DNA of 64,000 nucleotides, from assembly GCA_965224245.1 (NCBI GenBank), contig OZ245046.1, positions 2,144,001-2,208,000 on the forward strand, given 5' to 3'. The stretch comes from Candidatus Eiseniibacteriota bacterium. GTDB taxonomy: Bacteria > Eisenbacteria > RBG-16-71-46 > CAZAMP01. Position numbers and translations under genes: made by a program. Shown here piece after piece: positions 8,538-30,570 of this stretch; within the stretch, counting starts at the first letter, position 1, and every line of letters starts with the position of its first letter. The notes under the pieces are model-generated. The model did not search any database and was not told the DNA's origin. It saw only the letters and a list, made by a program, of their open reading frames with translations.

Positions 8538-10067
8538 CTACGCGGCGACGCGGGGCGGTGACGTCTCGTCGACGTCGACGTCGGCGGCCGGGTCGGTGTA
8601 GACGTCGAGCATGATGGCGGGGAGCGATACCTTCAGGGCGTCGATGACCCCCCCGTCCCAGGTCGTGCCACGCCCCTCCTCCAGGATCGCGAGCGTCTCC
8701 TCGACGGTACACGCTTCCTTGTAGACGCGGCGTGAGAGGATCGCGTCGAACGCATCCGCCACCGAGATGATGCGCGCCGGCATCGGAAGCCGATCGCCCG
8801 GGATGCCGTACGGGCCCGAGCCGTCGATCTTCTCGTGGTGGTAGGCCGCGATCGTGGGGACGTCCCGGAGGTGGTGCGGGAAGCGGATCTTGGCCAGGAT
8901 GTCCTCGGTCAGCGCCGCGTGCTGCGACACCTCGTCGTACTCCTTCGGTGTCAGACGATCGGGCTTGAACAGGAGCTCGTCCCGGATCCCTTGCTTGCCC
9001 AGATCGTGCACCAGCGCCGCCACGCTGACGCGCTCGAGCGTGTCGGCGTCCATGTCCATCGTGGTTGCGACGTGCGTCGCGACCTTCTGGACGCGCACCG
9101 AGTGCTCGGCGCCGGCCTCGTCCTTGAGCGCCAGCGAGTGCAGCAACGCGTGCAACGTGGATCGGAAGCCCAGGCGTTGCTCCTCGACGAGGAGGCGGTT
9201 CTCCAGAACGACTCCGATGTAGGTCGCGCAGTACGTCAGGAGCTCGAGATCGTCCTTCGTGAACGGCGCCCCGTCCGCGGCCCGCTTGTCCACCTGCACC
9301 ACGCCGAATGCCGAGTCGTGTCCGATCAACGGCGCCGTGACCGCGGTCTGGATCCGTGCCGCCACCACGCTGTCGGCACCCGGAAGCTCGGCTTCGGACT
9401 TGCTGAACAGGAGCGCTGTGACGTCCCGGAGCACGGTCTCCACGATGGTCCGGCTGAGCTGGGTCTCGCGGGTCGCCCCGTCCCGGGCGCGGACGACGAA
9501 CGGCTCGAGACGTCCGGTCTCGTCGCTCCGGATGACGATGCACGCGTGCGTGGCCTCCGGGAAGGCCGCGAACAGAAACGACGTCAGGACGGTCCCGAGC
9601 TGGCCGGGATCCCGTCGCACGCCGGTCTGGCGCATGAGATCGAGAAAGAGCGTGGCCAGGTGGGGATCCCCGCCGAGCCGAGCCGGGACGTCGGCGCCGG
9701 ACCGCTTCACCGGTCGCGACATCAGCACCGTGGTGCCGGCCGCGTCCCGGAGCACCGGCTCGTCGTCGGGGCTCACCGAGAGCGTGTACGTGCCCAGACG
9801 AAGCACGTCGCCCCGCGCCAGCTCCCACTCCGCGTTCTGGACCAGCGAGGACGTGTCGTCACGGACCACGATCGTGCCGTTGGTGCTTCCGAGATCGCAG
9901 AAGACGAGCTTTCCGCCCGTGAGCGTCACGACGCCGTGCGCCTTCGACACCCGTCGATCGCTGAGGCAGATGTCGCTCTCGGGCGAGCGGCCGATCGTGA
10001 CCTCGTCCTGAACGAACGTTTGTACCCGACGATCTTGCCGGGGCCCGGTGATGGTGATGCGTATCAT
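8538..10067 (-). CDS. FHA-GAF-HD-GYP family cyclic dinucleotide phosphodiesterase
   Basis: FHA (IGRS...VSKAH...DLGSTNGT), GAF (TAPL...GVVQVD), HD-GYP (EHSVRV, LVHDLGK, HHEKIDGSGPYG, ARIISVADAFDA). Confidence 0.88.
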   Translation of the reverse strand: MIRITITGPRQDRRVQTFVQDEVTIGRSPESDICLSDRRVSKAHGVVTLTGGKLVFCDLGSTNGTIVVRDDTSSLVQNAEWELARGDVLRLGTYTLSVSPDDEPVLRDAAGTTVLMSRPVKRSGADVPARLGGDPHLATLFLDLMRQTGVRRDPGQLGTVLTSFLFAAFPEATHACIVIRSDETGRLEPFVVRARDGATRETQLSRTIVETVLRDVTALLFSKSEAELPGADSVVAARIQTAVTAPLIGHDSAFGVVQVDKRAADGAPFTKDDLELLTYCATYIGVVLENRLLVEEQRLGFRSTLHALLHSLALKDEAGAEHSVRVQKVATHVATTMDMDADTLERVSVAALVHDLGKQGIRDELLFKPDRLTPKEYDEVSQHAALTEDILAKIRFPHHLRDVPTIAAYHHEKIDGSGPYGIPGDRLPMPARIISVADAFDAILSRRVYKEACTVEETLAILEEGRGTTWDGGVIDALKVSLPAIMLDVYTDPAADVDVDETSPPRVAA

Positions 10068-10143
10068 CCTTCTGAATGTCGGATCCGTCGGGGAATCGCC
10101 GCAATCCGGGGATCGCGGCCGGGCGGATTTGAACCGGCTTCGG

Positions 10144-10290
10144 TCAGCGCCGGAAGTCGGGGCGACCGTCGTCGGACCAGCGCGGCTTGAGCCGCCGGCG
10201 CCGGATCTTGCGGGCGGGGCGGGACATGGATCGGATGACGGCCAGCACCACGATCGCGCTCACGAGCAGGATCAGGAACGTCGTCTTCAC
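10144..10290 (-). CDS. Small single-pass membrane protein (48 aa), not in the ORF track
   Basis: GGGGGA then GTG; MKTTFLILLVSAIVVLAVIRSMSRPARKIRRRRLKPRWSDDGRPDFRR; nearly all codons end in G/C; fills an otherwise empty gap. Confidence 0.6.
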   Translation of the reverse strand: MKTTFLILLVSAIVVLAVIRSMSRPARKIRRRRLKPRWSDDGRPDFRR

Positions 10291-10359
10291 GGCGTGTCCC
10301 CCCATCCGGCCGGAGCGATCGAGCCGTCGGTCGGGAGGGCGGCGGACCCGATCACGCGG

Positions 10360-11115
10360 TCAGGCCCGCGTCCCGCGTCCGGTGGAGTCCCCGGGCTCGT
10401 CGTCGTCGAACTTCATCAGCTCGCGATAGTCGATGACCTGGAGCTTTCGTCGCATGCGCCAGCGCCGGTAGCGCTGGAGGAAAGGCGGCATCCGGATTCC
10501 GCGGCGCAGGAGCACGAACCCGATGGCGGCCCCGGCCAGGTGGATCGCGTGAGCGATGCCGTCGGACGAGTCGGGGTTGCCGATCATGTACAGCACCTCG
10601 ACGCCGATCAGCATCGCCACCACGATCGCGGCCCGCATCGGAATGATGAAGAAGAGGAGCACCGTGGCGTTGGCGAACAGGACACCGAACGCCAGGAGAA
10701 GCCCGTAGATCGCGCCCGAGGCACCGACCGTGGGCGTCGCGTCCATCCAGCGGGCGAACGTCCAGACGACCGCGGCCCCCACTCCGGTGATGAAGTAGTA
10801 CTGCAGGAATCGCGCACGCCCCAGCGCCCGCTCCACCGAGCTGCCGAACATGTACAGGTAGAACATGTTGAACAGCAGGTGGACGAAGTCGCCGTGCAGG
10901 AACAGGTATGTACCGAGCTGCCAGATGCGCCCGTGCAGCACGCCCCAGGAGCTCAGCCCGAAGACGTCGACCCAGGCGACCCAGTAGCGGCCGAGAAGGA
11001 TCTTGGTGGCCAGGAACGTCAGGATGTTCGCGAACAGCAGCATCCTGACGCCCGGCGGAACCGGAGTCCCGAAGCCGCCCATTGGTGTTCCCGAGGAGTA
11101 TCGGTAACTGCTCAC
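10360..11115 (-). CDS. Rhomboid family intramembrane serine protease
   Basis: WQLGTYLFLH...HLLFNM, catalytic GASG and AHAIHLAG; multiple TM helices. Confidence 0.92.
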   Translation of the reverse strand: MSSYRYSSGTPMGGFGTPVPPGVRMLLFANILTFLATKILLGRYWVAWVDVFGLSSWGVLHGRIWQLGTYLFLHGDFVHLLFNMFYLYMFGSSVERALGRARFLQYYFITGVGAAVVWTFARWMDATPTVGASGAIYGLLLAFGVLFANATVLLFFIIPMRAAIVVAMLIGVEVLYMIGNPDSSDGIAHAIHLAGAAIGFVLLRRGIRMPPFLQRYRRWRMRRKLQVIDYRELMKFDDDEPGDSTGRGTRA

Positions 11116-11156
11116 GCTGCCTGACCTCTGGGCTCGTTAGGACGTCCGGGCGTCGA

Positions 11157-11588
11157 TCACTTCGTCTCGGCGAGCTTGATCTTCGGAGCCATCGGCTCCT
11201 CGATCTTCGTCGCGACCTCCTTGGCCCCGCCCATCACGCAGTTGCCCTGGAAGAAGGCGCCGTCCTCGATCTTGAACGTGGCCGACTGGACGTCGCCCTC
11301 GAGACGAGAACCCCCGAGGAGCACCACGCGTTCCTTCGACTTGATCTTTCCGACCACGCGGCCGGCGATCTCGGCGCCTCCAGAGTCGATGTCGGCCTTC
11401 ACCACGCCCGTCTTGCCCACCACGAGCGCGTTCGAGACCGAGATCTGGCCCTCCACCTCGCCGTCGATCCGGAGATCGCCGTCGACGCAGAGCTCGCCGG
11501 AAAACCGAGTACCGTCACCGATCACAGTCTCGAGACGCTGCTGGGGGACGTGGCCGCCTTCGTACGACGGGGAATCCTTGCGGAACAT
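11157..11588 (-). CDS. Bactofilin (polymer-forming cytoskeletal protein)
   Basis: TVIGDG..FSGEL...LRIDGEVEG...LEGDV...IEDGAFFQGNC beta-helix pattern; GGAGG RBS. Confidence 0.92.
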   Translation of the reverse strand: MFRKDSPSYEGGHVPQQRLETVIGDGTRFSGELCVDGDLRIDGEVEGQISVSNALVVGKTGVVKADIDSGGAEIAGRVVGKIKSKERVVLLGGSRLEGDVQSATFKIEDGAFFQGNCVMGGAKEVATKIEEPMAPKIKLAETK

Positions 11589-11638
11589 TCAGGCCTCCAT
11601 TCCTGTGTGAGACATCCGTCCCAAGGGGACATACTCGG

Positions 11639-11665
11639 TGTTCGACCATTCACGCCACTTCTTGA
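11639..11665 (-). promoter_or_regulatory. sigma28 (FliA/WhiG)-like promoter upstream of bactofilin
   Basis: TCAAG-N14-GTCGAACA on the minus strand, 50 nt before the start codon. Confidence 0.4.
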
Positions 11666-11785
11666 GGCGCGGGCTGGGAACGGACTGGGGGCCCCGAGAC
11701 GCTGCGTCGCGGGCCTCGGCCGGCGGTCGATCGCGGAACTCGGAGGGCCGGAATCTAGCACGCCGGCCACGGCACCGCCAGCGGT

Positions 11786-13594
11786 CTAGGTCGACTCGGG
11801 AACGCGCAGCACGAGGATGGTCTGGTCGTCCTCGGGGGTCTCGCGCGGGCTGAACGCCTGGACCGCCCGGATCACGGCCTCTCCGATCGCGCGTGCGCTC
11901 ACCGGGCTTCCGGGGTCGTCTCCGGACGGTGCCGACACGGCCCCGCGCACGGCGGCCAGGAGCCGGGGCTCGTCGAACACCTCCTCCTCGTCGTCCGGGG
12001 CGGTCGCCTCGGTGAAGCCGTCGGTGTACATGACCAGCGCGTCCCCGGGATGGAGATCCCGCACCGCGGGCAGATACGTCGCGTCGGGGAACGCCCCCAG
12101 GATCGTGCCCCCGGTGGAGAGCCACTCCACCTCCCCCGACCGGCGAAGCAAGAGCGGCGGGTTGTGCCCGGCGTTCACGAACGTCAATCGCCGGTCGGCG
12201 GTGTTCAGCACCCCGTAGAACGCCGTGACGAAGGCCATGTCGTCCGTGCTGTCGTAGAGCAGGTGATTGAGCTCGCCCATGATCTCGGAGATCCCGTACG
12301 TGTTGCGAACCTCGCTCAGGAGCCCCGCGCGGACCGACGCCATGATCAGCGCGGCCGGCACCCCCTTGCCACTCACGTCGGCCACGACGAGCCCCACGTC
12401 GTTCGGCGAGACCCGGATCACGTCGTGGTAGTCGCCGCTCATCTCGAACGACGTGCGCTGTTCGCCCCACAGCTCGATCCCCGTGACCAGCGGCATGCGG
12501 CGGGGTTGAAACAGACGCTGGATGCGCCGCGCCAGCGCCAGCTCGCCGTCGATGCGCCGCTTCGCCTCGCGGAGCCGTCGCGTTCGTTCGCGGGCGACGG
12601 CCACCGACGCGATCGCCGCGAAGGCCTCGAGACGGTGCAGATCCCGGCGGCCGAACGCGGCGGGCCGGTCGCTCTCGATGTTGAATGCGCCGACCACCGC
12701 GTCGTGGCCCGGCTCGGCCCCGCGAAACGGGACGACCAGCTCCGACCGGGTCTCCGGTCGCGCCGTGACGTAGCTCGGATGCGTGAGCACGTCGTCGACG
12801 AGGACCGGCTTGCCCTCCGCGGCGGCCAGACCGACGAGCCCGCGCCCCAGCTTCAGCGCCAGGCGATGCTGCGCACCGGGCGGGTAGCCCCGGTGCTCGA
12901 GCCACTCGAGGGCGTCCCCCCGCGGGTCCACGAGGTAGATGCCGGCCGCGTCGTAGCGCACGAGCCGCTGGAGCTGATCGAGCAGCCGCTCGAGGAGGGT
13001 CTCGACGTCCATCGCCCGTCCCAGGTCCAGGCTGATCTCGTACAGGAGCTCATTCTCGGCGATCAGGTCGCGGCGTTCGTGATGCAGGAAGGCGTTGGAG
13101 AGCGACATGACGATGTCCTCGCCGACCGCTTCCAGGAACGCGATCGCGTCGGCGTCGAAGGGCTCCCTCCCGGATCGGCGGGAGACCTCGAGGACGCCGC
13201 GCAGGACGCCGGCGTGCACCATCGGGACGACCACCATCGGACCCACCGGGTAGCCGCACTCCGCCGAGTACCGCGGCACGTACGACGGGTCGGTCGAGAG
13301 GTCGCCCAGCACCCGGGGCGCGCGATCGGCGATCACGTCGGCCACGAAGCGGCGCGTGGGGGCGTCCACGACGACGGGATGATCCCAGCGGATCTCGTCG
13401 TAGAGCATGAGGTACGAGCCGGTGCGTCCGTCCTCGGAGAGCCACAGCAGGCTGACCGCGTCGGCATCCACGGTCCGGGTCACGCGCTCGCGGATCGTCC
13501 CCAGGAGATCGGGCAGGTGAGCCACGTCGTTGAAGGCGCGGGCGGCGGCGACCAGGTGAGGGTACAGACCGGGCGAGGGGTCGAAGCCGCTCAT
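11786..13594 (-). CDS. GAF-GAF-PP2C (SpoIIE/RsbU-like) serine phosphatase
   Basis: Two GAF domains; PP2C motifs SGDYHD, VADVSGKGVPAAL, NAGH, YTDG, DDQT. Confidence 0.92.
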   Translation of the reverse strand: MSGFDPSPGLYPHLVAAARAFNDVAHLPDLLGTIRERVTRTVDADAVSLLWLSEDGRTGSYLMLYDEIRWDHPVVVDAPTRRFVADVIADRAPRVLGDLSTDPSYVPRYSAECGYPVGPMVVVPMVHAGVLRGVLEVSRRSGREPFDADAIAFLEAVGEDIVMSLSNAFLHHERRDLIAENELLYEISLDLGRAMDVETLLERLLDQLQRLVRYDAAGIYLVDPRGDALEWLEHRGYPPGAQHRLALKLGRGLVGLAAAEGKPVLVDDVLTHPSYVTARPETRSELVVPFRGAEPGHDAVVGAFNIESDRPAAFGRRDLHRLEAFAAIASVAVARERTRRLREAKRRIDGELALARRIQRLFQPRRMPLVTGIELWGEQRTSFEMSGDYHDVIRVSPNDVGLVVADVSGKGVPAALIMASVRAGLLSEVRNTYGISEIMGELNHLLYDSTDDMAFVTAFYGVLNTADRRLTFVNAGHNPPLLLRRSGEVEWLSTGGTILGAFPDATYLPAVRDLHPGDALVMYTDGFTEATAPDDEEEVFDEPRLLAAVRGAVSAPSGDDPGSPVSARAIGEAVIRAVQAFSPRETPEDDQTILVLRVPEST

Positions 13595-15214: not shown

Positions 15215-15556
15215 TCAGACCCAGTACAGGATGCGTCCGCAGTTCTCGCACAGGAGGAGGCTCTCGGTGTTCTCGTCCGTGCGGACGGCGGACGTGGGGA
15301 GACCCATGAAGCAGCCCAGGCAGCTCTTGCCCTGCACGGGAACCACGGCCGACACGTAGTCGTACCGCTTGGCGACCCGCTCGTAGATGCCCAGGTCGCC
15401 CTCGTCGATCTCCGCCGCGAGCTTGTTCCGACTCTCGATGAGCTGGTCCAGCTTGTCGATCCGGAAGCCCAGCTTCTCCTCGTGACCCAGACGGACCTCG
15501 CGGATCATGATGTCGAGGTTCTGCAGGCTGACGAGCATCTCGTGGCGTCGATTCAT
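15215..15556 (-). CDS. Short C4-type zinc-ribbon protein (DUF164-like)
   Basis: LQNLD short coiled coil, then YER...AVVPV...CLGC...CENCGRILY. Confidence 0.85.
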   Translation of the reverse strand: MNRRHEMLVSLQNLDIMIREVRLGHEEKLGFRIDKLDQLIESRNKLAAEIDEGDLGIYERVAKRYDYVSAVVPVQGKSCLGCFMGLPTSAVRTDENTESLLLCENCGRILYWV

Positions 15557-16023
15557 GCCTGTCCTCGGAGCACCCCGATCACGTCGTCGAACGTCTCGGC
15601 CTTCAGGAGCGCCGTCCGGTTCTCGTCGTTCTTCAGGATCTCCACCAGCTTCCCCAGGAACGGCAGGTATCGGTTTGCACGATCGTTGGGCGGCGCCAGG
15701 ATCAGAAAGAACAGCGTGACCGGCTCACCGTCCACGGCATCGAAGCCGACGCCCCTGGCCGACCGCGCGAACAGCACGCTCATGTCCGACACGGCGAGCG
15801 AGCGACCATGCGGGATGGCGACGCCGCTGCCGATACCGGTGGATCCGAGCGCTTCCCGCTGCCGGAGCATCTCGAGCACGAGATCGCCGTCCCGGGTCCC
15901 GCCGGCCTTGACCAGTGCAGCGGTCAGCTCCTTCAGGACGCCGTCCTTGGATCGGGCTTTGAGCTTGGGGATGAAGTAATCGGGGCGAAAGAACTCGGTC
16001 ACGTCGAGCGCCGTCTTCGGCAT
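15553..16023 (-). CDS. ptsN: PTS EIIA (fructose/nitrogen-regulatory type)
   Basis: REALGSTGIGSGVAIPHGR with the phospho-His; FDAVDGEPV. Confidence 0.85.
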   Translation of the reverse strand: MPKTALDVTEFFRPDYFIPKLKARSKDGVLKELTAALVKAGGTRDGDLVLEMLRQREALGSTGIGSGVAIPHGRSLAVSDMSVLFARSARGVGFDAVDGEPVTLFFLILAPPNDRANRYLPFLGKLVEILKNDENRTALLKAETFDDVIGVLRGQA

Positions 16024-16053
16024 CCGGAGCTACTCCTGGCACGAGAGAGGGCG

Positions 16054-16082
16054 AGAATACCAACCGGATCGACTTCGGACAA
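16054..16082 (-). promoter_or_regulatory. sigma70-type promoter for the ptsN unit
   Basis: TTGTCC-N17-TATTCT with TGn extension. Confidence 0.6.
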
Positions 16083-16117
16083 CCACCCGGCGACCGACCG
16101 GGCGGGCGGTGCCCCGC

Positions 16118-16894
16118 TCAGAGCTCGGCGACCGCGTCGGCCGGCACCCAGCCCTTGAGATCGGACCCGAGCGCGATCTCCCGCCAGCGTCCGAGCTCGC
16201 GCGCGACCCGCACCTCGGTGCCGGCGTGCAGCGTGAACACGGTTCGGCTGTCGTCGCCCGGCTCGTTGGTGACGTCCAGCTCGGGGACCAGCACCACGGC
16301 GGACGGTCCACCCCCGGCGTCGATCGCGCGCCGGAGCCCGAGCGACCCCACGAGCACGACACAGGCCACGCCGAGGGTCCAGAAGAGCGCGCCGCGTCCG
16401 CGGCGCCATCCGGGCAGGAGCAGTGCCACGACCGCCGCGATGCCCAGTGCCCAGTACGCGCCCAGCGCGAGTGTCCAGACCGCCGGCTCGGGCAGGATCG
16501 AGACCGCCGAGACCACCGCGCCGAGCATCCGCGATCCCTCGCGCTCGGGGGCGGCATCGGCGGTGAGGCCGCGTGCGAACTCGAGGTTCGCGCGGATGTC
16601 CGCATCCCAGGGATCCAGCTGCTCGGCCTTCGCGTAGGCCCAGACCGCTCGCCCCACATCGTCGCGCCGGAGGGCCGCGTTGCCGAGGTTGAAGTAGACC
16701 TCCGGGGCCACGGCGCCGAGGTCCAGGATCGCCTCGTATGCCTGTGCCGCGCCCGCGTAGTCCTCTGCCTGATAGAGCCGGTTGCCCTGCTCGAAGAGCG
16801 CCAGCGCGTCGGGCGGTGACCCGGTGGCGTCGGCGTACCCGGCCGACGCGAGGATCGCGAGCATCAGCCGGGCGCGGGTCCACCGTCGGGTCAT
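16118..16894 (-). CDS. batE: BatE-like TPR + TM + SH3 protein
   Basis: TPR (YFNLGNA...DIRANL), two TM helices, SH3b-like FTLHAGTEV...KGWVP. Confidence 0.85.
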   Translation of the reverse strand: MTRRWTRARLMLAILASAGYADATGSPPDALALFEQGNRLYQAEDYAGAAQAYEAILDLGAVAPEVYFNLGNAALRRDDVGRAVWAYAKAEQLDPWDADIRANLEFARGLTADAAPEREGSRMLGAVVSAVSILPEPAVWTLALGAYWALGIAAVVALLLPGWRRGRGALFWTLGVACVVLVGSLGLRRAIDAGGGPSAVVLVPELDVTNEPGDDSRTVFTLHAGTEVRVARELGRWREIALGSDLKGWVPADAVAEL

Positions 16895-18660
16895 GCCGGC
16901 GCCCCCGCGCTCCGAGAGCGAGCCAGCGCCTCGACCAGCTCCCGTGCCTCGCGGGCCAGGGGATCGAGCCCGCCACTCGCCGCCATCGGCGCAAATCGTT
17001 TCATGTCACATTGATCCCCGAATGATCTCACCCGTTTCACGAGGTCGGGGTCCACCCCCTCGGCCTCGAGCGCCGCGACGGCCTCCCGCGCGGTCAGCGT
17101 GCTCGACGGCGAATCCAGCCGATCGGCCAGGAAGCCGCCGACGGCGTTCCAGAGCGCCGACGCATCGTCCTCGGTGAGCGCCCGATCGATGGATGCCTGG
17201 GCCCGCACGAGCGCGCCGCGCCGCCGCCGGCCCGTGACGTCGCCCTCGAGTCGCTCGCGCCGGCGCCGCCACACGAACGCACCGGCCACGCCCAGAGCCG
17301 GAAGGAGGTGGATCCAGGCGGTCGCGCGGAGCCCGCTGCCGGCGTCGCCGGCGGTACGGAACCGCGGCGCGTCGGTCCGGATGAAGCGCAGGTCATCGTG
17401 CAGGAGCTCCACGGTTCCCTTCCCGATCGCGCCGAAGCGATCCCCGCCGCCGGTCCCCGGACGCACCGTCACCGGGAACGGCCCCGCGGTGAGCGTGCGG
17501 TAGGCGGCGCGATCGGCGTCGAAGTAGGTGAAGCGAACCTCGGGGATCTCCAGCTCGCCGGCCACCAGTGGCACGAAGGCGCGCTCGATCACACGCGTCC
17601 CGCCGAGCCGCCCCCGCATCAGCTGGGGCTCGGTCACGCTCGAGGCATCGAACACGCGAAACCGCGACGTCTCCGGCACCGCGACCGCCTCCCCGCTGCC
17701 GAGGTTGCCCTGGCCGGCGATGCGGATGGTCAACGTGACCGGGTCGTTCTGATCGACGGTGTCGGTGTCGAGGGTCGCCGACATGTCGAACGATCCCACG
17801 GCGCCGGCGAACGACGGGTCGTCGGTCGGGGGCAGCGGCCGAACCGTGATCTCGAGCGGCTCGCTCGTGACCACGACGCTCCGACGCTCGCGAAATCCCC
17901 CGAAGAACGAGAACCGGTCGCGCCGGCGGCCGGAGGGCACCGACGCCTCGAGCCGCGCGGAGCCGATCGCCTTTCGACCCTCCCCCAGGGGAAACAACGC
18001 GTACCGGAAGCGCTGCACGTTGTACCGCACGCCCTCGAAGACCTCGGTGTCGGGCTCGCGATCGGGCAGCCGCTCGGTGATGAACCCGGTCGTCGGTGGG
18101 GGCTGGTAGTCGCTGTCGAAGATCGTGCCCCGGTAGTAGCACGACACGGTCAGGAGAACCTGCTCACCCTCGTACACGTCGTCGCTGTCGACGGTGGCCA
18201 CGAGGAACAACGTGTCGGGGGCGTCGTCGTCGCGAGCCGTGGGCGAGGACCGTCCCGCGCGTCGCTCCTCGACGGTGATCGTGAAGGGCTCGGTCCGGTA
18301 CACGGTGCCGTCGACGGTCACCGCGATCGACGGCACCGTCAGCTCACCTGCCGCGCGCGGCACCAGCGTGTACCGGTACTGGAACGACGCGTCCATCTGC
18401 CCGTTGACGATCCGCGTCTGCTGGGACGTGCCGCTGGAGAAGACGTCGCACGCCTGGTGCAGCGCGTCGGGCAGCTCGGGGGTCCGCTGGCGATTCGGCG
18501 TGCCCTCGATGTCGATCGTCAGCACGAACCCCTCCCCCACGGTCGCCGTGCGACGATCGGCGGAGGCGGAGACGTCGATCGCCGCCCGCGAGACCGACGC
18601 GACCAGCGCCAGGGATGCGATCGCGACCCGGGTCGCGACCGAGACGTGTCGAGAGCTCAC
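16891..18660 (-). CDS. batD: BatD family protein
   Basis: Signal peptide; IVNG, VYEGEQV, GAVGSF, GQGNL, FTYFD motifs; C-terminal TM; bat operon context. Confidence 0.88.
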   Translation of the reverse strand: MSSRHVSVATRVAIASLALVASVSRAAIDVSASADRRTATVGEGFVLTIDIEGTPNRQRTPELPDALHQACDVFSSGTSQQTRIVNGQMDASFQYRYTLVPRAAGELTVPSIAVTVDGTVYRTEPFTITVEERRAGRSSPTARDDDAPDTLFLVATVDSDDVYEGEQVLLTVSCYYRGTIFDSDYQPPPTTGFITERLPDREPDTEVFEGVRYNVQRFRYALFPLGEGRKAIGSARLEASVPSGRRRDRFSFFGGFRERRSVVVTSEPLEITVRPLPPTDDPSFAGAVGSFDMSATLDTDTVDQNDPVTLTIRIAGQGNLGSGEAVAVPETSRFRVFDASSVTEPQLMRGRLGGTRVIERAFVPLVAGELEIPEVRFTYFDADRAAYRTLTAGPFPVTVRPGTGGGDRFGAIGKGTVELLHDDLRFIRTDAPRFRTAGDAGSGLRATAWIHLLPALGVAGAFVWRRRRERLEGDVTGRRRRGALVRAQASIDRALTEDDASALWNAVGGFLADRLDSPSSTLTAREAVAALEAEGVDPDLVKRVRSFGDQCDMKRFAPMAASGGLDPLAREARELVEALARSRSAGAPA

Positions 18661-18662
18661 CG

Positions 18663-20582
18663 CTACCAGTCCTTTTCCACCGGAACCCGGCTGCGTCGCG
18701 CCTCCAGCAGCTGGCGCAGGTGTTCCCGCTCGGCTTCCTCGAGCTTGTCGAGCTCCCGGCGGGCTTCCTCGGGCGAGATACGCGCCTCTTCGGGCTGCGG
18801 TTCCTCGCCCTGGGAGGCGTCACCCCCCTGCGGCGTCTGCTGCTCGTCCGGGCTCGCGTCCGGAGGCGTCGACCCGTCGTCGGGCGGCTCCTGCCCGGAG
18901 TCCTGGGAGTCGTCGGGGTCGTCGGAATCGGGCGGAGGCTGATCCGGCGACGGTCCCTCGTCGGGCGGCTGCTGACCCTCCTGGCCTCGATCCTGGTCCT
19001 GATCCTGCTGCTGATCCTGCGGCTGCTGCTCGGGAGACGACGAGGAGTCGGGCTCCTGCGACTCGAGCATCCGCTGGACCAGCTCGAGGTTGTAGCGTGC
19101 CTCGGCATTGCCGGGGTCGCCGCGCAGCACGTCCTTGAAGATGCGCTCAGCCTCGGCGAGGTTGTCGAGCTCCGCCTGCGCGTTGCCGGCGTTGTAGAGC
19201 GCCGAGGACGTCAGGGCGGCGTCGCCCGCCCGGGCCGCGCGCTGCCAGTCGCCGATCGCCTCGGCGAGCGCGGCCGAGTCCGGTGCGCCGGCGCGAAACC
19301 GGGCGTTGGCCAGGTTGTAGGAAAGCTCGGGGCGCGCATCCCCGGACACGATGGCCTCGCGATAGCCGCTGGCGGCGGCGGCGTAGTCGCCGGCCTCGTA
19401 CGCCCGGGCGGCCTCGATCGCCTCGCGCGACCACCGCTCGGCCGCAGCCGCCCCGGTCCCGAGCACCGTCGTGCACAGCACCAGCAGGCCGACGGCGGTG
19501 GTCGCGACGGCGCGTCCGTCCGGGCCGCTCCCGCGCGGGGGCGCCGGGCCGCCGCGCGTCGCCCGGGACCCCGCGGATCGACGGCGGCGCGCCGCGTCCC
19601 CGATCAGCAGCTCGAGCGCGAGCAGGAGCACCGCCGGTGCCAGGAAGACGACGTACCGATCGTCGTACAGCTTGAACATGCCGGCCTCGAACGCCTTCTC
19701 CTCCAGGTCGGCCAGGAGGTCGGCCACGTAGTCGACCCCCTCGGCGCCGCGTCCCACGGGGATGTACGCGCCGCCGGTCTCGACGGCGATTCGCTCCAGC
19801 AGCGCCTCGTCGAGTCGTGACATGACGACGCGCCCCTCCCGATCGGACTTGTACGAGCGCCCGCCACGCTCGTCCACGATCGGGATGGGCTCGCCCTCGA
19901 CGCGGCCCATGCCCAGCGCGTAGACGCGGACACCGGCACGCGACGTCTCCTCGATGGCGGCGTCGACGTCTCCCTCGTGGCTCTCGCCGTCGGTGATCAG
20001 GAGGATCGCCCTGGCGTCGGAGCGGTCGTCGTCGTCGAAGCACTCGCGCGCGCGTGTCAGCGCGTCGGCGAGGGCCGTCCCCGGCCGAGCGAGCATACCG
20101 GGCTCGACCACGTCGAGCATCAACCGGATGGCCGAATAGTCGACCGTGAGCGGTGATTGCACGACGGCCTCGCCGGCGAACACGACCAGCCCGACCCGAT
20201 CCCCCTCGAGGCGCTGGAGGAGATCCTTCACGTCCTGACGCGCCCGGGCCAGGCGGCTGGGCTTGATGTCCTCGGCGGTCATGCTCAGTGACACATCGAG
20301 CGCCACGACGATGTCGACGCCCTTCTGTGAGACGTTGACCCAGTCCAGAGCCGACTGCGGTCTCGCCGCGGCCAGGGTCAGCAGCGCAACCGCTCCCAGG
20401 AGGGCCGTGCGCCGGAGCGCCGGCCACGCTCCCGTCGAGCGCGGACCGAGGCGGCCCAGGACGCCCGCGTCGCCCAGCTCGGCCAGCAGGGTCCGGCGTC
20501 GCGCCCGCGCCCACAGGAACACCGCGACCAGGAGCGGCACCGCCAGGAGAAGCCATCTCACTTCGGGATAGGCGAATCGCAC
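18663..20582 (-). CDS. BatB-BatC fusion (VWA + TM + TPR + Q/D-rich linker)
   Basis: MIDAS DVSLS, LITDGE; TPRs (YNLAN, YNAGN, ARYNLEL); ends EKDW like BatC. Confidence 0.85.
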   Translation of the reverse strand: MRFAYPEVRWLLLAVPLLVAVFLWARARRRTLLAELGDAGVLGRLGPRSTGAWPALRRTALLGAVALLTLAAARPQSALDWVNVSQKGVDIVVALDVSLSMTAEDIKPSRLARARQDVKDLLQRLEGDRVGLVVFAGEAVVQSPLTVDYSAIRLMLDVVEPGMLARPGTALADALTRARECFDDDDRSDARAILLITDGESHEGDVDAAIEETSRAGVRVYALGMGRVEGEPIPIVDERGGRSYKSDREGRVVMSRLDEALLERIAVETGGAYIPVGRGAEGVDYVADLLADLEEKAFEAGMFKLYDDRYVVFLAPAVLLLALELLIGDAARRRRSAGSRATRGGPAPPRGSGPDGRAVATTAVGLLVLCTTVLGTGAAAAERWSREAIEAARAYEAGDYAAAASGYREAIVSGDARPELSYNLANARFRAGAPDSAALAEAIGDWQRAARAGDAALTSSALYNAGNAQAELDNLAEAERIFKDVLRGDPGNAEARYNLELVQRMLESQEPDSSSSPEQQPQDQQQDQDQDRGQEGQQPPDEGPSPDQPPPDSDDPDDSQDSGQEPPDDGSTPPDASPDEQQTPQGGDASQGEEPQPEEARISPEEARRELDKLEEAEREHLRQLLEARRSRVPVEKDW

Positions 20583-20585
20583 GGC

Positions 20586-21587
20586 TCACTCCCAGGTTCG
20601 GAGGCAGACGGTCTGCCCCGCGATCAGCTCCACGAGAAGCACGAGCAACGCCAGGAGCGCGAGGGTCGGGCCGACCTCCGAGTAGCGGACGTAGACCTCG
20701 GTCTCGATCTCGGTCTTCTCCATCTCGCTGATCCGATCGTAGATCCGCCCCAGCGCCTCGGGATCGGTGGCCCGGAAGTACAGACCGCCGGACGTCGTGG
20801 CCACGTCGGTGAGCGTCTCCTCGTCGAGCTTGCTCTCGTAGTAGACGTATCGCTTGCGACCGAACGCGTCGATCTCGGGGAACGGGACCTTCTCCTTCTC
20901 GGATCCTACACCGATCGTGTAGACGCGGATCCCGAGCGACTTGCAGAGCTCGGCGGCGGTCGCCGGATCCACCGCACCGGCGTTGTTGATCCCGTCGGTC
21001 AACAGGATCACGACCTTGCTCTCGGCCTCGGAGTCCTTCAGGCGATTGGCGGCGGTGGCGATGGCCATCCCGATCGCGGTGGCGTTCGGGTCGCCGACGT
21101 CCTCGAACCGGACGTTCCGCACCAGCCCGGCCAGGACACCGTAGTCGCGGGTCAGGGGACACTTCGTGAACGCGTCCCCCGCGAAGATGACGAGCCCGAT
21201 GCGGTCGCCGGTCCGGCCCATGACGAAGTCGGCGGCTCGCTCCTTGGCCACGTGGAGGCGATTCTCGGGCTGAAAGTCCTCGGCCCGCATCGAGCCCGAG
21301 ACGTCCAGCGCCAGGACGATGTCGATGGCGTCGCCCACGAGCTGCTCCTCGCGCTCACCGAACTGCGGTCGCGCGAGCGCGATGATCCCCAGCCCGATCG
21401 CCGTCGCGCGGAGCCAGGGAAGCGCGCGGTGGAGGCGCACCCGCACGCTGATGCCCACGCGCGCCAGATCGGAGACGCCGGGGTAGGTGATGCGGCTCCG
21501 ATGACGCTCACGTGCCGGGCGCGTCGCGGCGTAGAGGAGCAAGAGGACCGGCAGCGCCAGGAGCACGAGCGGATACGCGAACCTCAC
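20586..21587 (-). CDS. batA: BatA VWA-domain protein
   Basis: GTG start with GGAGG RBS; LARPQ, DVSGSM, TAIG, LLTDG, IRVYTIGVG, YFRATD. Confidence 0.9.
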   Translation of the reverse strand: MRFAYPLVLLALPVLLLLYAATRPARERHRSRITYPGVSDLARVGISVRVRLHRALPWLRATAIGLGIIALARPQFGEREEQLVGDAIDIVLALDVSGSMRAEDFQPENRLHVAKERAADFVMGRTGDRIGLVIFAGDAFTKCPLTRDYGVLAGLVRNVRFEDVGDPNATAIGMAIATAANRLKDSEAESKVVILLTDGINNAGAVDPATAAELCKSLGIRVYTIGVGSEKEKVPFPEIDAFGRKRYVYYESKLDEETLTDVATTSGGLYFRATDPEALGRIYDRISEMEKTEIETEVYVRYSEVGPTLALLALLVLLVELIAGQTVCLRTWE

Positions 21588-22609
21588 GGGCGCCTCCCCT
21601 GTTCGGCCCATGGCCGTGGCGCGTGACCGTCCGCGCTCGGCCCCGCCGGCGGCGACGACCGCACCGACGTCACGGTCGCCGTGGTGAGCGTCACGAACGC
21701 CCTGGCCGCCGCGAGGTCGCGAGAGGGCACGTCGGTGGCGGGAACGGCCTTCGCGAACTTCACCGCGTCTCCCTCGTGGAGCACGCCCCGGAGCGACAGG
21801 ACGGCCTGATCGGGTGCCTGGGCCTGGCGCAGTGCGGCCAGCGTCTCGCTCGTGGTCAGGTCCGGGGCGTCGACGCCGTAGCGCTCGGCCACGTAGTGAC
21901 GCAGGATGTCGGTGAGCTCGGTGTAGAACGCCTTCCACGGTCCCATCCGGGCCAGGTCGGAAGCCGCCAGACGCGACAGCGCGGCCAGCGCCCGCTCGTG
22001 CGCCGGGGCCGGCGGAGTCGCCGGCAGGATCGGCGCCCGACCCCGACGACGCCACCACGCGGTGATGAGCGCGGCCAGCGCCAGCGCGGCCGCCGCCGCC
22101 ACGATCCACGGCCAGCGACGTGCGGGCGGTCGGATGGGCACGGCCTCCCGGATCGGCAGGAGTGACTCGGCATCGGCGGGGACCGTGGAGAGGACGGTCA
22201 CGGTCAGGCTCTCGCTCACCGCCACGCACAGGTCGCCCGCCGCCCTGGCCGCGAAGCGCAATGGGGCGACGCGATGCCGCCCCACGGCGAACGCCGCGGC
22301 ATCGATCACGACGTGCGCGGTGTCCCCCCGGTCGAGCGCGCGCTCGATGCCCGTGACCTCGATCGGGCCGAGCTCGGCGAGCGGCGTGATCATCTCGATG
22401 GCCTCCAGCCCGGGATGAACCAGCTCCGCGTCGACCCGGAACGGCTGTCCCATCAGGAGCGAATCGGCGTGCACGCGGACGACGACCGGAACCACGACCG
22501 TGTCCGGGACCGACTCCGCCGCCTCCTGGGCTCCCGTCGCCGAGCCGGCGTGGAGGACCGCGAGGATCACCGCCGCCCGGGCCGCGTCACGAGCGCTCCC
22601 GATCGCCAT
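21584..22609 (-). CDS. Bat-operon membrane protein (DUF4381-like)
   Basis: Signal peptide, Ig-like region, single TM, then FYTELTDILRHY...TTSE...DAVKFAK. Confidence 0.75.
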   Translation of the reverse strand: MAIGSARDAARAAVILAVLHAGSATGAQEAAESVPDTVVVPVVVRVHADSLLMGQPFRVDAELVHPGLEAIEMITPLAELGPIEVTGIERALDRGDTAHVVIDAAAFAVGRHRVAPLRFAARAAGDLCVAVSESLTVTVLSTVPADAESLLPIREAVPIRPPARRWPWIVAAAAALALAALITAWWRRRGRAPILPATPPAPAHERALAALSRLAASDLARMGPWKAFYTELTDILRHYVAERYGVDAPDLTTSETLAALRQAQAPDQAVLSLRGVLHEGDAVKFAKAVPATDVPSRDLAAARAFVTLTTATVTSVRSSPPAGPSADGHAPRPWAEQGRRP

Positions 22610-23531
22610 CAGCGTCGCCGCCTCTGATCCCTGGCGCGGAAGAAGTCGTGCATCGGACGAACGTAGTCACCGGTGGTGTCGATGCGGATGTGATCCACTC
22701 CCGCCGAGCGAAGCGTCTCGGTGAGCCGCGCCCGGCGCTCGGCCCGGAGCGCCTGGTACGCCGCGCGCACGGCGGGGTCGCCGAGGTCGAGGGTCGCGCG
22801 CTCGCCCGACTCGGGGTCGACGCCCTCGACGAGCCCATCTCCGCGGAGCGCGAGCTCGAACGGGTCAAGCACCTCGATCGCGATCACGTCGTGACGCCGG
22901 GCCAGCACCGACAGCGGCTGGCGAAACCCGGTGTCCTGAAAGTCCGAGATCACGAAGATGACGGCCCCTCGCTTGTGAACGCGCGCGGCGAACTCCAGGG
23001 CGGCGCCGATGTCGGTCCCCCTGCCCTCCGGCTCGAAGAACAGGATGTCGCGGACCAGGCGGAGCACGTGGGAGCGTCCCTTGCGCGCCGGGATGTAGCT
23101 CTCGACGCGATCGGTGAACGGGATCAGCCCCACCTTGTCCTTGTTCCGCACCGCGCTCATGGCCAGCACGGCGGTGATCTCGGCCGAGGTCTGTCCCTTG
23201 GTGCGCGCCGCCAGCCCGAAATCGGTGGAGCCGGAGAGATCCACGACGAACGTCACCGTGAGCTCGCGCTCCTCGACGTATCCCTTCACGTACGGCTCGC
23301 CCTGCCGGGCGGTGACGTTCCAGTCGATGGAGCGAACGTCGTCTCCGGGGACGTACTGCCGCACCTCGTCGAACTCCATGCCGCGTCCCTTGAACGCGGA
23401 GTGGTACTCGCCCTGGAAGAGGTTCTGCACCATCCGTCGCGTGCGGATCTCGATCCGCCGGACCTGGGCGACGACGTCGCGGGGAAGCGGCAATCGCTCG
23501 CGGCCGGCCCCCGTTCGCGCGCCGGGAGACA

Positions 23532-23532
<1 letters not shown>
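22609..23532 (-). CDS. DUF58 domain protein
   Basis: YHSAFKGRGMEFDEVRQYVPGDDVRSIDWNVTAR, EERE, ISDF; start overlaps the moxR stop. Confidence 0.92.
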
Positions 23533-24518
<986 letters not shown>

Positions 24519-24705
24519 GAGCCCTCCTTGCCTCCCGGTTCCATGCGCCGAGACGGGGCTCGGCCCTCGCCACGGCGTCACCGCCGGGCGCTCAACGACC
24601 GTAGCTGAGATCTTCGGAAATGACGGCCTGCCGGGCTGAACCGGCGCCCCCTCGGGGACGTCCCGCGCATCGCGCGACCTCGGCGGCCCAAACTCGGGAC
24701 ACGAG

Positions 24706-24734
24706 ACCATACCGACACGCCGGTGACGAGACAA
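24706..24734 (-). promoter_or_regulatory. sigma70-type promoter for the moxR-bat operon
   Basis: TTGTCT-N17-TATGGT on the minus strand. Confidence 0.5.
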
Positions 24735-24967
24735 GCGCCAAGCCGGCGCGCGACGGGTCGGCCCTGTTCGTGTACACGCGAGACCCCGGTCCAGATCCAC
24801 CGGAGCCTCGGTTCGTCCGAGCCACCGCCGTGCGATCGGCCGGAGCGGACCGCAGCCGACCGCACGCCCATCCGACGAACATAGATGATCCGGAGGTCCC
24901 GGATGCCCGATCCGGCTGGCCAGCGCGTCGCGTCCACGAACACCATCAGCGGGAGTCCGAGCGCGAG

Positions 24968-26671
24968 ATGTTCTCACGCACCCACGTTCCGACCGCCATC
25001 GCCGGCACCGCCGCGCTCGTCTCGGGCCTGGGCGCCTGGCTGGTGACCGAGCTGGGGACCGTGCCCGCCGGGGCCGTCACCGAGCTGATCGGCGCCGCCG
25101 CCACGACCGCCAGCCTCGACTCCCCCGACTTCGCCGACGCCCTGTACGGCGTCGTCCGGCGCTCCGACGCGCGCGCCGCGGCGGTCATCGACGCCGAGGG
25201 ACGGATCACCCACCACACCGACTCGAAGCGGATCGGGCACTGGGTGCCTCCGAGCACCGCCCGCGTCGGCGATGCGATCGCCCAGACCGTGTTCGGCGAG
25301 CGGGGACCGACCACGATCGTCCGGATCGGGGTCGACCAGCGCGAGCTGGTGGTCCTGGGTGCGGCTCCCCACTCGCTCGCCCGCATCCTGCCGTTCCTGC
25401 TCCTGGCCGTGGCCACGGGCGCGATCGCGTGGGGGGTCGGCGCGCGGACCAATCGGGCGCTCGAGGGGACCGAGAGCGAGCTCGATCCGATCCGCCGGGC
25501 CCTGGTCGCCGACGGCACGTTCCCTGAGCGGGGGGATCTGGACGGCGACCAGATCGCCGATCTCGTGGTCGAGGCGCTCGAGTCGTCCGAGTCGCTGCAT
25601 CTGGAGTGCCGGACGCTGGAGTTCGAACGCAACCGGCGCCAGCAGGTTCTGGACAGCCTGCCCGACGGCGTCGTCATGACCGACAACATCGGCGACGTGA
25701 CGTACGTCAATCGCGCGGGTGCGGCGCTGATGAGCGTCCGGGCCGAGGACGCGATCGGACAGCCGTTCGGGGCGCTGAACGCCGCGCTGGCGTCGGCGGC
25801 GGCCAGCGCCCAGCGGACGGGGCGGGCCGTGCTCTCGACCGGAGAGGAGCCCGCGCGGCGCCATCTCCTCCTGAGACGCGTGCACCTCGTCGCGGACGGA
25901 AGCCCGACCGGAACGCTCTACTCCGTCCGCGACGTCACGCAGCAGCACGCGGCCGAGCGCGCCCAGGCCGAGTTCGTCTCCCAGCTCTCTCACGAGCTGA
26001 AGGCGCCGCTGAACACGATCGTGACCTACGTGGACGCGCTCGCCGACAGCGAGCTCCTGGACGAGAACGAACGCGGCCAGTACTTCAACACGCTCTCCAG
26101 CGAAGCTCAGCGCATGGGACGGCTGATCTCGAACCTGCTGCAGATCTCCCGCATCGAGCTGGGCAACCTCTCGGCGAAGTTCGCGTTCGTCAAGTCGTCC
26201 ACGCTGATCCGCAATCTCGCCGAGTCGTTCACGTCCCAGGCCGAGGGACTCGGGCACACGCTGCGCGTCAACGTGCCGAGTAACCTCCCTCCGCTCTACG
26301 GAGACAAGGACCTCCTGAGCGTCGCGATCTCGAACCTCGTGTCGAATGCGATCAAGTACACACCGCCCGGGGGTGACATCGAGGTCACCGCCGCGGTCGA
26401 CGTGGAGGGCCTCGTCATTCGCGTTCGCGACTCGGGGATCGGCATCCCCGACGACGAGCTGGATCGGGTCTTCGAGCGATTCCATCGCTCCGAGCAGCCC
26501 GAGGTCCGCGAGGTCGGTGGCACCGGGCTGGGCCTGTCCCTGGTGCGGGAGATCGTCCAGCTGCACGAGGGACGCGTCCGCGTCGAGAGCACGATCGGTC
26601 AGGGCAGCGAGTTCATCATCGAGCTGCCCATCCGCGAGGTGGGGGAACGTCTGGACCTGGCGGCCGCGTAG
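24968..26671 (+). CDS. Membrane sensor histidine kinase (2 TM, PAS, HisKA, HATPase)
   Basis: H-box SHELKAPL, N-box NLVSNAIKY, DSGIG, GTGLGL; PAS LDSLPDGVV...YVNRA. Confidence 0.92.
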   Translation: MFSRTHVPTAIAGTAALVSGLGAWLVTELGTVPAGAVTELIGAAATTASLDSPDFADALYGVVRRSDARAAAVIDAEGRITHHTDSKRIGHWVPPSTARVGDAIAQTVFGERGPTTIVRIGVDQRELVVLGAAPHSLARILPFLLLAVATGAIAWGVGARTNRALEGTESELDPIRRALVADGTFPERGDLDGDQIADLVVEALESSESLHLECRTLEFERNRRQQVLDSLPDGVVMTDNIGDVTYVNRAGAALMSVRAEDAIGQPFGALNAALASAAASAQRTGRAVLSTGEEPARRHLLLRRVHLVADGSPTGTLYSVRDVTQQHAAERAQAEFVSQLSHELKAPLNTIVTYVDALADSELLDENERGQYFNTLSSEAQRMGRLISNLLQISRIELGNLSAKFAFVKSSTLIRNLAESFTSQAEGLGHTLRVNVPSNLPPLYGDKDLLSVAISNLVSNAIKYTPPGGDIEVTAAVDVEGLVIRVRDSGIGIPDDELDRVFERFHRSEQPEVREVGGTGLGLSLVREIVQLHEGRVRVESTIGQGSEFIIELPIREVGERLDLAAA

Positions 26672-26692
26672 CCGTCGCCCGGGGAGGAACCG

Positions 26693-27085
26693 GTGTCACA
26701 CATCTTGATCGTCGACGACGATCCCGCCGTCGCACGCGTGCTGGCGATGATGTTCGAGAGATCCGGATACCGGGTCGACGTGGCCAACGACGGCCAGGAG
26801 GCGCTCGAACGCCTCGGTCGGATCCGCGCGGACGCGATGATCTGCGACATCAACATGCCGCGCCTCAGCGGGCGTGAGCTCTGCATCACGCTGTGGCGAG
26901 ACGGCCCCTACCTCCCGCGATGCGTCTGCATCGTGACGTCCTCGACGAACCTCGAGGAGCGAGACTGGCTGGATGAGATGCCGGGAGTCGAGCTGGTCGA
27001 GAAGCCGGTCAGCCCCCGTGCGCTTCTCGGACGCGTGGGCGAACGACTGGCCAGCCTCGAAGGGGAGAAGGAATCGGCGGCATGA
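26693..27085 (+). CDS. Single-domain response regulator (CheY-like)
   Basis: ILIVDDD, ICDINMP, IVTS, EKP; no output domain. Confidence 0.92.
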   Translation: MSHILIVDDDPAVARVLAMMFERSGYRVDVANDGQEALERLGRIRADAMICDINMPRLSGRELCITLWRDGPYLPRCVCIVTSSTNLEERDWLDEMPGVELVEKPVSPRALLGRVGERLASLEGEKESAA

Positions 27086-28485
27086 ACGCCTCGCAGGCCA
27101 GGTTCGCGGAGTGGGCCCGAACGTCGGCGCTTCCGTTGTTCGACGAGATCGCGAGATCGGTGCCGTCGCTGGCGCTCCGGGCGTCCGACGGCACCCTCGT
27201 TCGCGGACGCGACGGCGTTCAGCCGGAAGCATCGGCGATCCGGATCGCCATCGAGACTCGGGGCAACGTGCTCGGAACGCTCGCATCCGAGGAGACCGTC
27301 CACGCGTCGCTGGTCGAGGTCCTCGCGTCCGAGCTCACGCGCCGTTTCACCACCGAGACCGATCTCGAGGACGTCCTGGAGACGCTGGCCCAGTGCTACG
27401 AGGAGCTCAACCTCCTCTACCGGCTGGCCAGCTCGGTCCAGACCGAGGACGACTTCGCGTCGGACTGCCGGATCCTCCTCGGCGAGACCGTGGACACACT
27501 CGACGAGCGCAGTGTCGTCCTCATGCTACGGGACGGCGGGCACGACTTCGTCGAGACGGCCGCGTCCGGCGGCCGCGAGGTGTCGGACGCGGTCCGCGCG
27601 GTGGGCCGCAACCGCGAGCTGCTCGATCAGGTGCGATCCGCACCGGCCCCCGAGGAGAAGGGCTCCCGGTCGGTGCGCATCGCGGGCGCGAGCCCGTTCG
27701 GACGGACGATCCTGCCCTACCTGGCGGTACCGGTGTACGACCGCGACGGGATCGGCGGTGCCGTCGTGGCCGTTCACGGCCTCGACGAGCCCCCGATCGA
27801 GTCGGGCGAGATGAAGCTCCTGGAGTGTCTGGCCGCGAAGCTGTCCAGCACGCTGATCCACCGCCAGCTCCAGAACGAGCTCAAGGACATGCTGTTCAAC
27901 ACCGTCCGCTGCCTCGTGGCCGCCATCGAGGCCAAGGACGCGTACACGCGCGGGCACTCCGAACGCGTGTACGAGCTCTCGATCGAGCTGGGTCGTCGGC
28001 TCGGCCTCTCGCCGGCCGATCTTCAGACGTTGACCTGGTCGTCGCTCCTGCACGACATCGGAAAGATCGCGATCCCCGGGGAGATCCTCGCGAAACCCGG
28101 CCGGCTGACCGACGAAGAGTTCGAGATCATCAAGACCCATCCCGAGCGCGGGTGCGTCGTGCTGGAGCCGATTCCTCAGCTGCGCGCGGTGCTGCCGGGG
28201 ATCCGGCACCACCACGAGCGCGTCGACGGCCGCGGATACCCCGACGGGCTGGCCGGAGCGGAGATCCCGCTTCTGGCCCGGATCATCGCCGTCGCCGACA
28301 CCTACGATGCGATGGTCTCGACGCGGGCGTACCGGAAGCCCCGGAGCTTCGAGTTCGCGGTCGACGAGGTCCGCCGCTCGGCCGGCACGCAGCTCGATCC
28401 GACGATCGTGGACGCGTTCCTGGAGCTGATCGACGCAGGGCGTGTCGGTCCCGGGGTCGAGCCGGTGGCCCGGGACGCGGCATAG
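27082..28485 (+). CDS. GAF-like + HD-GYP cyclic di-GMP phosphodiesterase
   Basis: EAKDAYTRGHSERV, LHDIGK, HHHERVDGRGYPDGL, IIAVADTYDAM...RAYR; ATGA overlap with the receiver gene. Confidence 0.92.
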   Translation: MNASQARFAEWARTSALPLFDEIARSVPSLALRASDGTLVRGRDGVQPEASAIRIAIETRGNVLGTLASEETVHASLVEVLASELTRRFTTETDLEDVLETLAQCYEELNLLYRLASSVQTEDDFASDCRILLGETVDTLDERSVVLMLRDGGHDFVETAASGGREVSDAVRAVGRNRELLDQVRSAPAPEEKGSRSVRIAGASPFGRTILPYLAVPVYDRDGIGGAVVAVHGLDEPPIESGEMKLLECLAAKLSSTLIHRQLQNELKDMLFNTVRCLVAAIEAKDAYTRGHSERVYELSIELGRRLGLSPADLQTLTWSSLLHDIGKIAIPGEILAKPGRLTDEEFEIIKTHPERGCVVLEPIPQLRAVLPGIRHHHERVDGRGYPDGLAGAEIPLLARIIAVADTYDAMVSTRAYRKPRSFEFAVDEVRRSAGTQLDPTIVDAFLELIDAGRVGPGVEPVARDAA

Positions 28486-30560: not shown

Positions 30561-30570
30561 GAGGATTCCG

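Follow-up and report, generated by a model that had tools for sequence, protein, structure and literature searches.

Why should four signalling proteins, and no other protein encoded around them, end in two alanines? The question arises in a stretch of 64,000 nucleotides (the window, C1:2144001-2208000) of the 6.9-Mb genome of a Candidatus Eiseniibacteriota bacterium, a genome that is 97% complete and has a guanine-plus-cytosine (GC) content of 69%. A reading made from the DNA alone (the sequence-only reading) had counted four C-terminal Ala-Ala endings (-AA) among 55 coding sequences, had named the proteins that carry them (a histidine kinase, a receiver and two HD-GYP proteins) and had taken the ending for a ClpXP-type degradation signal (degron). 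Translation and independent gene calling agree with this count and with the four names. The four termini are local examples of a lineage-wide end-tag, a protein-level and lineage-specific motif on His-Asp signalling proteins, cyclic di-GMP (c-di-GMP) proteins and pilus-motor proteins.

Ala-Ala termini in the window and across the genome

Genes were called with our own program, using codon log-odds trained on long open reading frames (ORFs) rich in GC at the third codon position and then a greedy choice of non-overlapping frames, which gave 4963 genes. Fifty-five of the genes called on codon usage overlap the window, and exactly four of these end in -AA. Across the genome the ending is found on 84 of 4963 genes (1.69%), and at that rate at least four among 55 would be expected with p = 0.014. 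The sequence-only reading had also held that the ending is limited to signalling proteins. Inside the window this holds, as none of the 47 other genes ends in -AA and all four cases fall among eight signalling genes (hypergeometric p = 2e-4, for a grouping made post hoc). The other four of the eight, assigned from Pfam matches and inspected at their tails, end differently: a GAF-SpoIIE phosphatase (11786-13594), a phosphotransferase-system EIIA-2 protein (PTS EIIA-2, 15553-16023), a STAS protein (28519-28857) and a low-molecular-weight phosphatase (41533-42120).

Three of the tagged proteins are encoded by an operon directly upstream of a filament cluster. Its first gene (24968..26671, +) encodes a PAS-HisKA-HATPase_c histidine kinase, recognised from its translation, Pfam matches and codon context, with the two Ala codons at 26663-26668 and a TAG stop. 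The start of this gene is uncertain: the ATG at 24620 opens the longest ORF (683 residues) and a start at 24968, the choice of the caller, gives 567 residues; the 116 extra residues are rich in Arg, Pro and Ala and matched no Pfam domain. The second gene (26693..27085, +) encodes a stand-alone receiver, or response regulator (translation; Pfam Response_reg, E = 6e-19). Its last codon, GCA, and its TGA stop overlap the ATG of the next gene, so the ATGA constraint that the sequence-only reading had noted at this end is real. The third (27082..28485, +) encodes a predicted HD-GYP (HD_5) c-di-GMP phosphodiesterase (translation; Pfam HD_5, E = 3.5e-43), in which the HD and GYP motifs are both readable and a tail of about 13 residues extends past the HD_5 domain. 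The fourth tagged protein is encoded on the opposite strand (8538..10067, -) and is of the FHA-GAF-HD-GYP type (translation; Pfam FHA and HD_5, E = 7.5e-32); HD is present, and GPY stands in place of the canonical GYP after an HHExxDG motif.

To measure enrichment over the whole genome, Pfam families were mapped by profile search and each match was read in frame to its stop, which makes the termini independent of the gene caller; rows under the curated cut-off (2 of 55 for the receiver, 1 of 100 for Pkinase) were excluded. The ending was found on 10 of 52 receiver genes, 10 of 59 HATPase_c genes, 2 of 8 HD_5 genes and 3 of 7 GGDEF genes, on none of 8 SpoIIE genes and on 1 of 99 Pkinase genes. 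When distinct genes are counted, -AA is found on 21 of the 112 that encode at least one of the receiver, HATPase_c, HD_5 and GGDEF domains and on 62 of the 4745 that belong to none of the six families (Fisher p = 4.7e-17, odds ratio 17.4). The ending is therefore strongly over-represented in two-component and c-di-GMP genes, and it remains so when the four window genes are excluded (17/108, p = 5.7e-13). The excess is confined to the very end of the protein: Ala, whose background share is 10-12%, accounts in this set for 38% of residues at position -1, for 28% at -2 and for 13% at -3. Five domain types are found at the ends of the tagged proteins, namely HATPase_c, receiver, the DNA-binding end of NtrC-type regulators, GGDEF and HD_5, and thus the tag was not inherited along with one domain; their tails are unrelated save for the last two residues. 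The whole-genome Pfam search gave no EAL match in this 97%-complete genome, and the HD-GYP proteins therefore appear to be its sole c-di-GMP phosphodiesterases. Ser/Thr kinases number about 100 in the genome. As a separate feature of its termini, Arg is the last residue of 1076 of the 4963 called proteins (22%), a share far higher than it has at positions -2 to -10.

The -AA genes outside these families were also inspected. A Pfam scan covered 58 of the 62, the four omitted being three extra copies, all identical, of one Mutator-family transposase and one member of a near-identical pair of DnaB-like genes. Among the scanned genes were three T2SSE ATPases (one PilB, two PilT-like), PilM and a DUF4388 protein; seven glycosyltransferases, Wzy_C, DegT and four small helix-turn-helix regulators; and housekeeping genes such as transketolase, YidC, COX1 and AcrB. 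In families defined with phmmer, the ending was carried by 3 of 11 T2SSE ATPases, 1 of 2 PilM proteins and 4 of 37 glycosyltransferase family 4 (GT4) enzymes. The main type IV pilus cluster lies outside the window (C1:2531303-2543368), and there the ending is shared by PilM, PilB, a kinase and an NtrC-type regulator but not by the PilT encoded between them.

Several further -AA loci were seen in passing. At C1:3809496-3816387, which looks like an exopolysaccharide locus, five genes end in -AA (a DUF2334 gene, two GT4 glycosyltransferases, an unannotated protein of 449 residues and a PHP-domain protein), four of them adjacent and the fifth after a 1.5-kb gap. C1:5305269-5309066 encodes an HD-GYP protein ending in VA, two PilT-like ATPases (one ending in VA, one in AA) and the sole -AA Ser/Thr kinase of the 99. 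A protein of 334 residues with AAA_2 and ClpB_D2-small domains, without a zinc-binding N-terminus, ends in -AA at C1:5899247-5900251 and gave no match to the ClpX model. The Mutator-family transposase (369 residues, -AA) is present in four identical copies, at C1:909590, C1:916655, C1:4106955 and C10:1329, which slightly inflates the background count.

Conservation in relatives and controls

Conservation was assessed in relatives of which one belongs to the same family as the source genome and all others to the same class. Syntenic kinase, receiver and HD-GYP genes were found in the same-family relative and in a second genome, with 47-59% identity, and all three proteins end in -AA in both. 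Orthologues of the FHA-GAF-HD-GYP protein (E <= 1e-60) were matched in 4 of 40 relatives, and all four end in -AA, with the rest of their tails differing. The best HD-GYP homologue of each same-class genome, taken at non-self loci, ends in -AA in 12 of 29 cases, on tails that run 13 to 41 residues past the aligned region. The ending is thus kept in orthologues of all four window proteins, on otherwise variable tails, and is retained at 45-50% identity.

Whole families were then sampled. Top-scoring HATPase_c loci from 12 relatives in 12 families (30 loci, minus two of the source genome and one run-off) gave 9 of 27 ending in -AA and 11 of 27 ending in any Ala. A second draw, of one top locus per further genome (30 loci, minus five repeats, one from an unpublished genome and one run-off), was made at phylum level, with all 30 genomes belonging to the same class as the source; here 7 of 23 ended in -AA and 13 of 23 in any Ala. 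Receivers of the 12 relatives (30 loci, minus three of the source genome and one run-off) ended in -AA in 3 of 26 cases and in any Ala in 5 of 26. ABC_tran proteins of the same 12 relatives (30 loci, minus two of the source genome) served as negative control, with 0 of 28 ending in -AA and 3 of 28 in any Ala. HD-GYP homologues of other phyla were taken as an outgroup and gave none with -AA among 80 (any Ala, 5/80), including none among the 36 with a GC content of at least 0.62, and HATPase_c proteins of five high-GC outgroup genomes gave 2 of 30 (any Ala, 7/30). Pooled, 16 of 50 in-lineage kinases end in -AA, which differs from ABC_tran (p = 3e-4) and from the outgroup kinases (p = 0.012), although the relatives are not phylogenetically independent and p-values across them are overstated. 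The direction was consistent over ten families.

Causes at the level of DNA or composition were tried and rejected. Gene overlap does not explain the ending, since 17 of the 21 tagged genes have no stop/start overlap and 4 of 21 have a 4-nucleotide overlap; in the genome as a whole, -AA is found on 19 of 618 genes with such an overlap vs 65 of 4345 others. A DNA-level motif does not explain it either, as Ala is encoded by GCC, GCG or GCA and both TGA and TAG occur as stops. Composition is rejected because only positions -1 and -2 show the Ala excess and few or no -AA ends occur in GC-matched controls. For reference, Ala makes up 11.6% of residues, and the AA dipeptide has a frequency of 1.4% inside proteins and 1.5% within the last 30 residues. 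The position-specific excess, the conservation on drifting tails, the varying codons and the low controls together argue that the motif is selected at the protein level, and we consider it very probable that the terminal motif is real and under selection.

A candidate reader and the competing explanations

What, then, might read this ending? The genome encodes one transfer-messenger RNA (tmRNA; ARAGORN), whose tag, ANSHEMALAA, itself ends in ALAA, together with a clpP-clpX operon at C1:865269-867164 and a second clpP elsewhere. Its ClpX scores 611 bits to TIGR00382 and aligns to the solved ClpX 9ndj_F (E = 5.5e-159) with identical GYVG, ITRDV and GGRKH loops. By our own count on the alignment, which carries a one-residue offset, the loop residues correspond to Tyr153, Val154, Thr199, Val202, Arg228 and His230. 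These same six residues are described as critical for the reading of the ssrA Ala-Ala-COO- by ClpX, and the terminal Ala-Ala-COO- as the most important element of the tag (PMC7652416).

The residues ahead of the two alanines are not random. Arg was found at position -4 in 9 of 21 AA tails of the genome itself (binomial p = 7e-4) and in 13 of 39 from relatives (p = 9e-4), against a background of 0.13. The 39 comprise every AA-ended tail available; a wider set of 90 tails is non-random, with only AA-ended receivers included, and gives no rate. When random C-terminal tags were screened in E. coli, Ala-Ala formed the end of 91% of the top 100, and an upstream Leu and Ala or Arg at position 2 of the 5-mer were favoured (PMC10862746). 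The Arg at -4 occupies the position at which Arg favoured the E. coli ClpXP tags in that screen (PMC10862746), which supports a ClpXP reading.

Judged from these sequence features, we lean towards a ClpXP-type protease that would read the motif as an ssrA-like degron. In this proposal Ala-Ala-COOH, often as R-x-A-A-COOH, on the short variable tail of cytoplasmic signalling and type IV pilus motor proteins would be read, like the bacterium's own ssrA tag (...ALAA), by ClpXP or another ssrA-reading AAA+ protease. Low-copy regulators would thereby be given a short or conditionally controlled lifetime, and the signalling state would become clearable.

The degron put forward in the sequence-only reading has held up in part. 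Enrichment, conservation, the ALAA end of the tmRNA tag and the intact ClpX loops speak for it, and a number of observations weigh against it. Signalling proteins exist without the tag, as only 1 of 106 genes with Ser/Thr kinase or PP2C domains alone ends in -AA, and only about one-fifth to one-third of the members of the tagged families carry it. The significance of the comparison across relatives is, as noted, overstated. An ssrA-like Leu at -3 is not typical: of the genome's own 21 tails, 4 have a hydrophobic residue at this position (background 0.28) and 10 a polar or charged one. Ala-Ala proved necessary but insufficient alone in the E. coli screen, where polar residues or Gly/Ser ahead of it made weak tags (PMC10862746). 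Tail length does not distinguish tagged from untagged kinases (median 10 vs 9 residues, p = 0.32); in five of five kinases ending with HATPase_c, -AA lies 9-14 residues past the Pfam domain. A single-sequence AlphaFold model of the receiver, which continued the last helix to the end of the chain, was of too low quality (mean predicted local distance difference test score, pLDDT, 66) to reveal a free tail. A search of the 97%-complete genome for the adaptor SspB (PF04386) was negative; CpdR, RcdA and PopA were not searched for, and the stand-alone receiver of the operon matches CpdR in architecture. Lastly, -AA is not depleted in the other 4745 genes, where 62 were observed and 55 expected by composition, which makes a strong autonomous degron in -AA alone unlikely. 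Since polar residues stand upstream in place of Leu and the ending is not avoided by other proteins, the tag is probably weak alone and dependent on context, an adaptor or an exposed tail.

Comparison with known Ala-Ala degrons points to likenesses and differences. Like the ssrA tag and the natural 'C-motif 1' degrons of ClpX, the ending described here is a free C-terminal Ala-Ala-COOH on a short tail, in a genome whose own tmRNA tag ends in ALAA. Unlike them, it is encoded by the gene, is mostly preceded by residues that are polar or charged, with an Arg at -4 and not a Leu at -3, and extends over whole protein families, in which a fifth to a third of the members have it. In Caulobacter, degradation of the regulator CtrA is gated by the adaptors CpdR, RcdA and PopA. 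This response regulator carries its degradation signal, Ala-Ala, at the C-terminus and is stabilised in the ctrADD allele (PMC12421884). The likeness lies in a two-component protein that ends in Ala-Ala, read by ClpXP in CtrA (PMC12421884) and putatively so here; the difference is that CtrA is a single regulator with adaptors, whereas here dozens of unrelated kinases, regulators and c-di-GMP enzymes are concerned and SspB was not found. The sigma factor sigma-AntA of Streptomyces, in which Ala-Ala is kept in 67 of 71 orthologues, is a ClpXP substrate that is stabilised by an AA-to-DD change (PMC7142297). The same logic, from conservation to degron, applies here, although sigma-AntA is one orphan extracytoplasmic function (ECF) sigma factor in one pathway and shows no proteome-scale pattern. 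In Mycobacterium tuberculosis, degrons reportedly sit on a few membrane anti-sigma factors and are exposed upon cleavage. These anti-sigma factors carry an ssrA-like C-terminal degron read by ClpX (bioRxiv 10.1101/491043), unlike the present case without a family-wide terminal dipeptide. A full-text literature search, whose scope left out most subscription journals, found no description of a lineage-wide -AA excess on two-component proteins.

Among the other explanations, the one that survives best, and that we regard as unlikely, is that Ala-Ala-COOH (often R-x-A-A) serves for docking to a partner without a proteolytic role, such as a scaffold, a peptide-binding domain or a localisation factor, which would bring signalling and pilus proteins together. 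Such a role would fit a motif that is selected and lineage-specific, whose Arg at -4 and polar -3 differ from the Leu of the bacterium's own ssrA tag, which other proteins do not avoid, and whose carriers (two-component proteins, c-di-GMP enzymes, pilus ATPases and PilM) form a functionally coherent set. No candidate for a non-proteolytic reader was identified, however; the well-studied cytoplasmic readers of free Ala-Ala-COOH are all AAA+ proteases (PMC7652416 and PMC10862746), and the Arg at -4 is favourable for E. coli ClpXP too (PMC10862746).

Less probable still is a degron read by a protease other than ClpXP, either FtsH in the case of membrane kinases or, as further options, ClpAP or Lon. 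The ssrA tag is recognisable by four of the five ATP-dependent proteases of E. coli (PMC10862746), and many of the tagged proteins are likely to be membrane-bound sensor kinases. Against this, ClpXP was the only protease that was robust on short C-terminal tags in the E. coli screen (PMC10862746).

The sequence-only reading had gone further, and had seen in the locus a dedicated c-di-GMP switch or life-stage timer, in which the phosphorelay and two phosphodiesterases would be cleared by timed proteolysis for the adjoining filament. The kinase-receiver-HD-GYP operon does lie directly upstream of a cluster that resembles type II secretion and type IV pilus systems, its three termini are co-conserved in two relatives, and elsewhere pilus ATPases, PilM and the kinase/regulator pair inside the main pilus cluster are tagged. 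The tag is, however, genome-wide (21/112) and lineage-wide, the filament ATPase and structural genes next to the operon are untagged, no sequence sign of timing or cell cycle was seen and SspB was not found; the timer is therefore considered improbable.

Chance, high-GC composition, gene overlap or another DNA-level effect can hardly account for the ending, for although Ala is abundant (11.6%), genes with a 4-nucleotide overlap end in -AA somewhat more often and the last codon of the receiver is ATGA-constrained, the excess (p = 4.7e-17) is limited to positions -1 and -2, overlap is absent from 17 of the 21 tagged genes, codons and stops vary, the GC-matched controls are low (ABC_tran 0/28, high-GC outgroup HD-GYP 0/36, outgroup kinases 2/30) and the ending is conserved in orthologues at 45-50% identity.

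Neighbouring features and implications for the lineage

The filament cluster downstream of the operon (28519..39997, +; Pfam) encodes STAS, a T2SSE ATPase, T2SSF, pseudopilins, PilM/PilO-like proteins and a secretin, and all of them lack the -AA ending. The two tagged loci flank a complete Bat-type operon (MoxR, DUF58, BatA, VWA, BatD and TPR; 15215-24518, -), with a bactofilin gene (11157-11588) and a rhomboid gene (10360-11043) near it. Nucleotide skew is much stronger in two parts of the window than in its remainder: GC skew falls to -0.195 over the Omp85/RseP region (52001-56000) and AT skew to -0.133 over the ribosomal-protein region (60001-64000). An Rfam scan of the window gave no match.

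If ClpXP does read the ending, a wider and more tentative picture can be drawn, which we hold to be possible rather than probable. Between a fifth and a third of the lineage's sensor kinases, response regulators, c-di-GMP enzymes and pilus ATPases would carry a hard-coded R-x-A-A-COOH end, and ClpXP as a single reader could erase or reset the whole sensory and surface-behaviour network at one stroke. The protease might be gated by an adaptor that has yet to be described, or by competing ssrA-tagged products under translational stress. Regulated proteolysis of signalling proteins would then operate on the scale of a proteome, as opposed to the one-substrate cases known so far, and protein lifetime would be a designed, shared parameter of a bacterial signalling network. 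The pattern singles out candidate ClpXP substrates in a lineage that has been little studied, and an excess of -AA in kinases offers a simple sequence marker with which similar programmes may be sought elsewhere.

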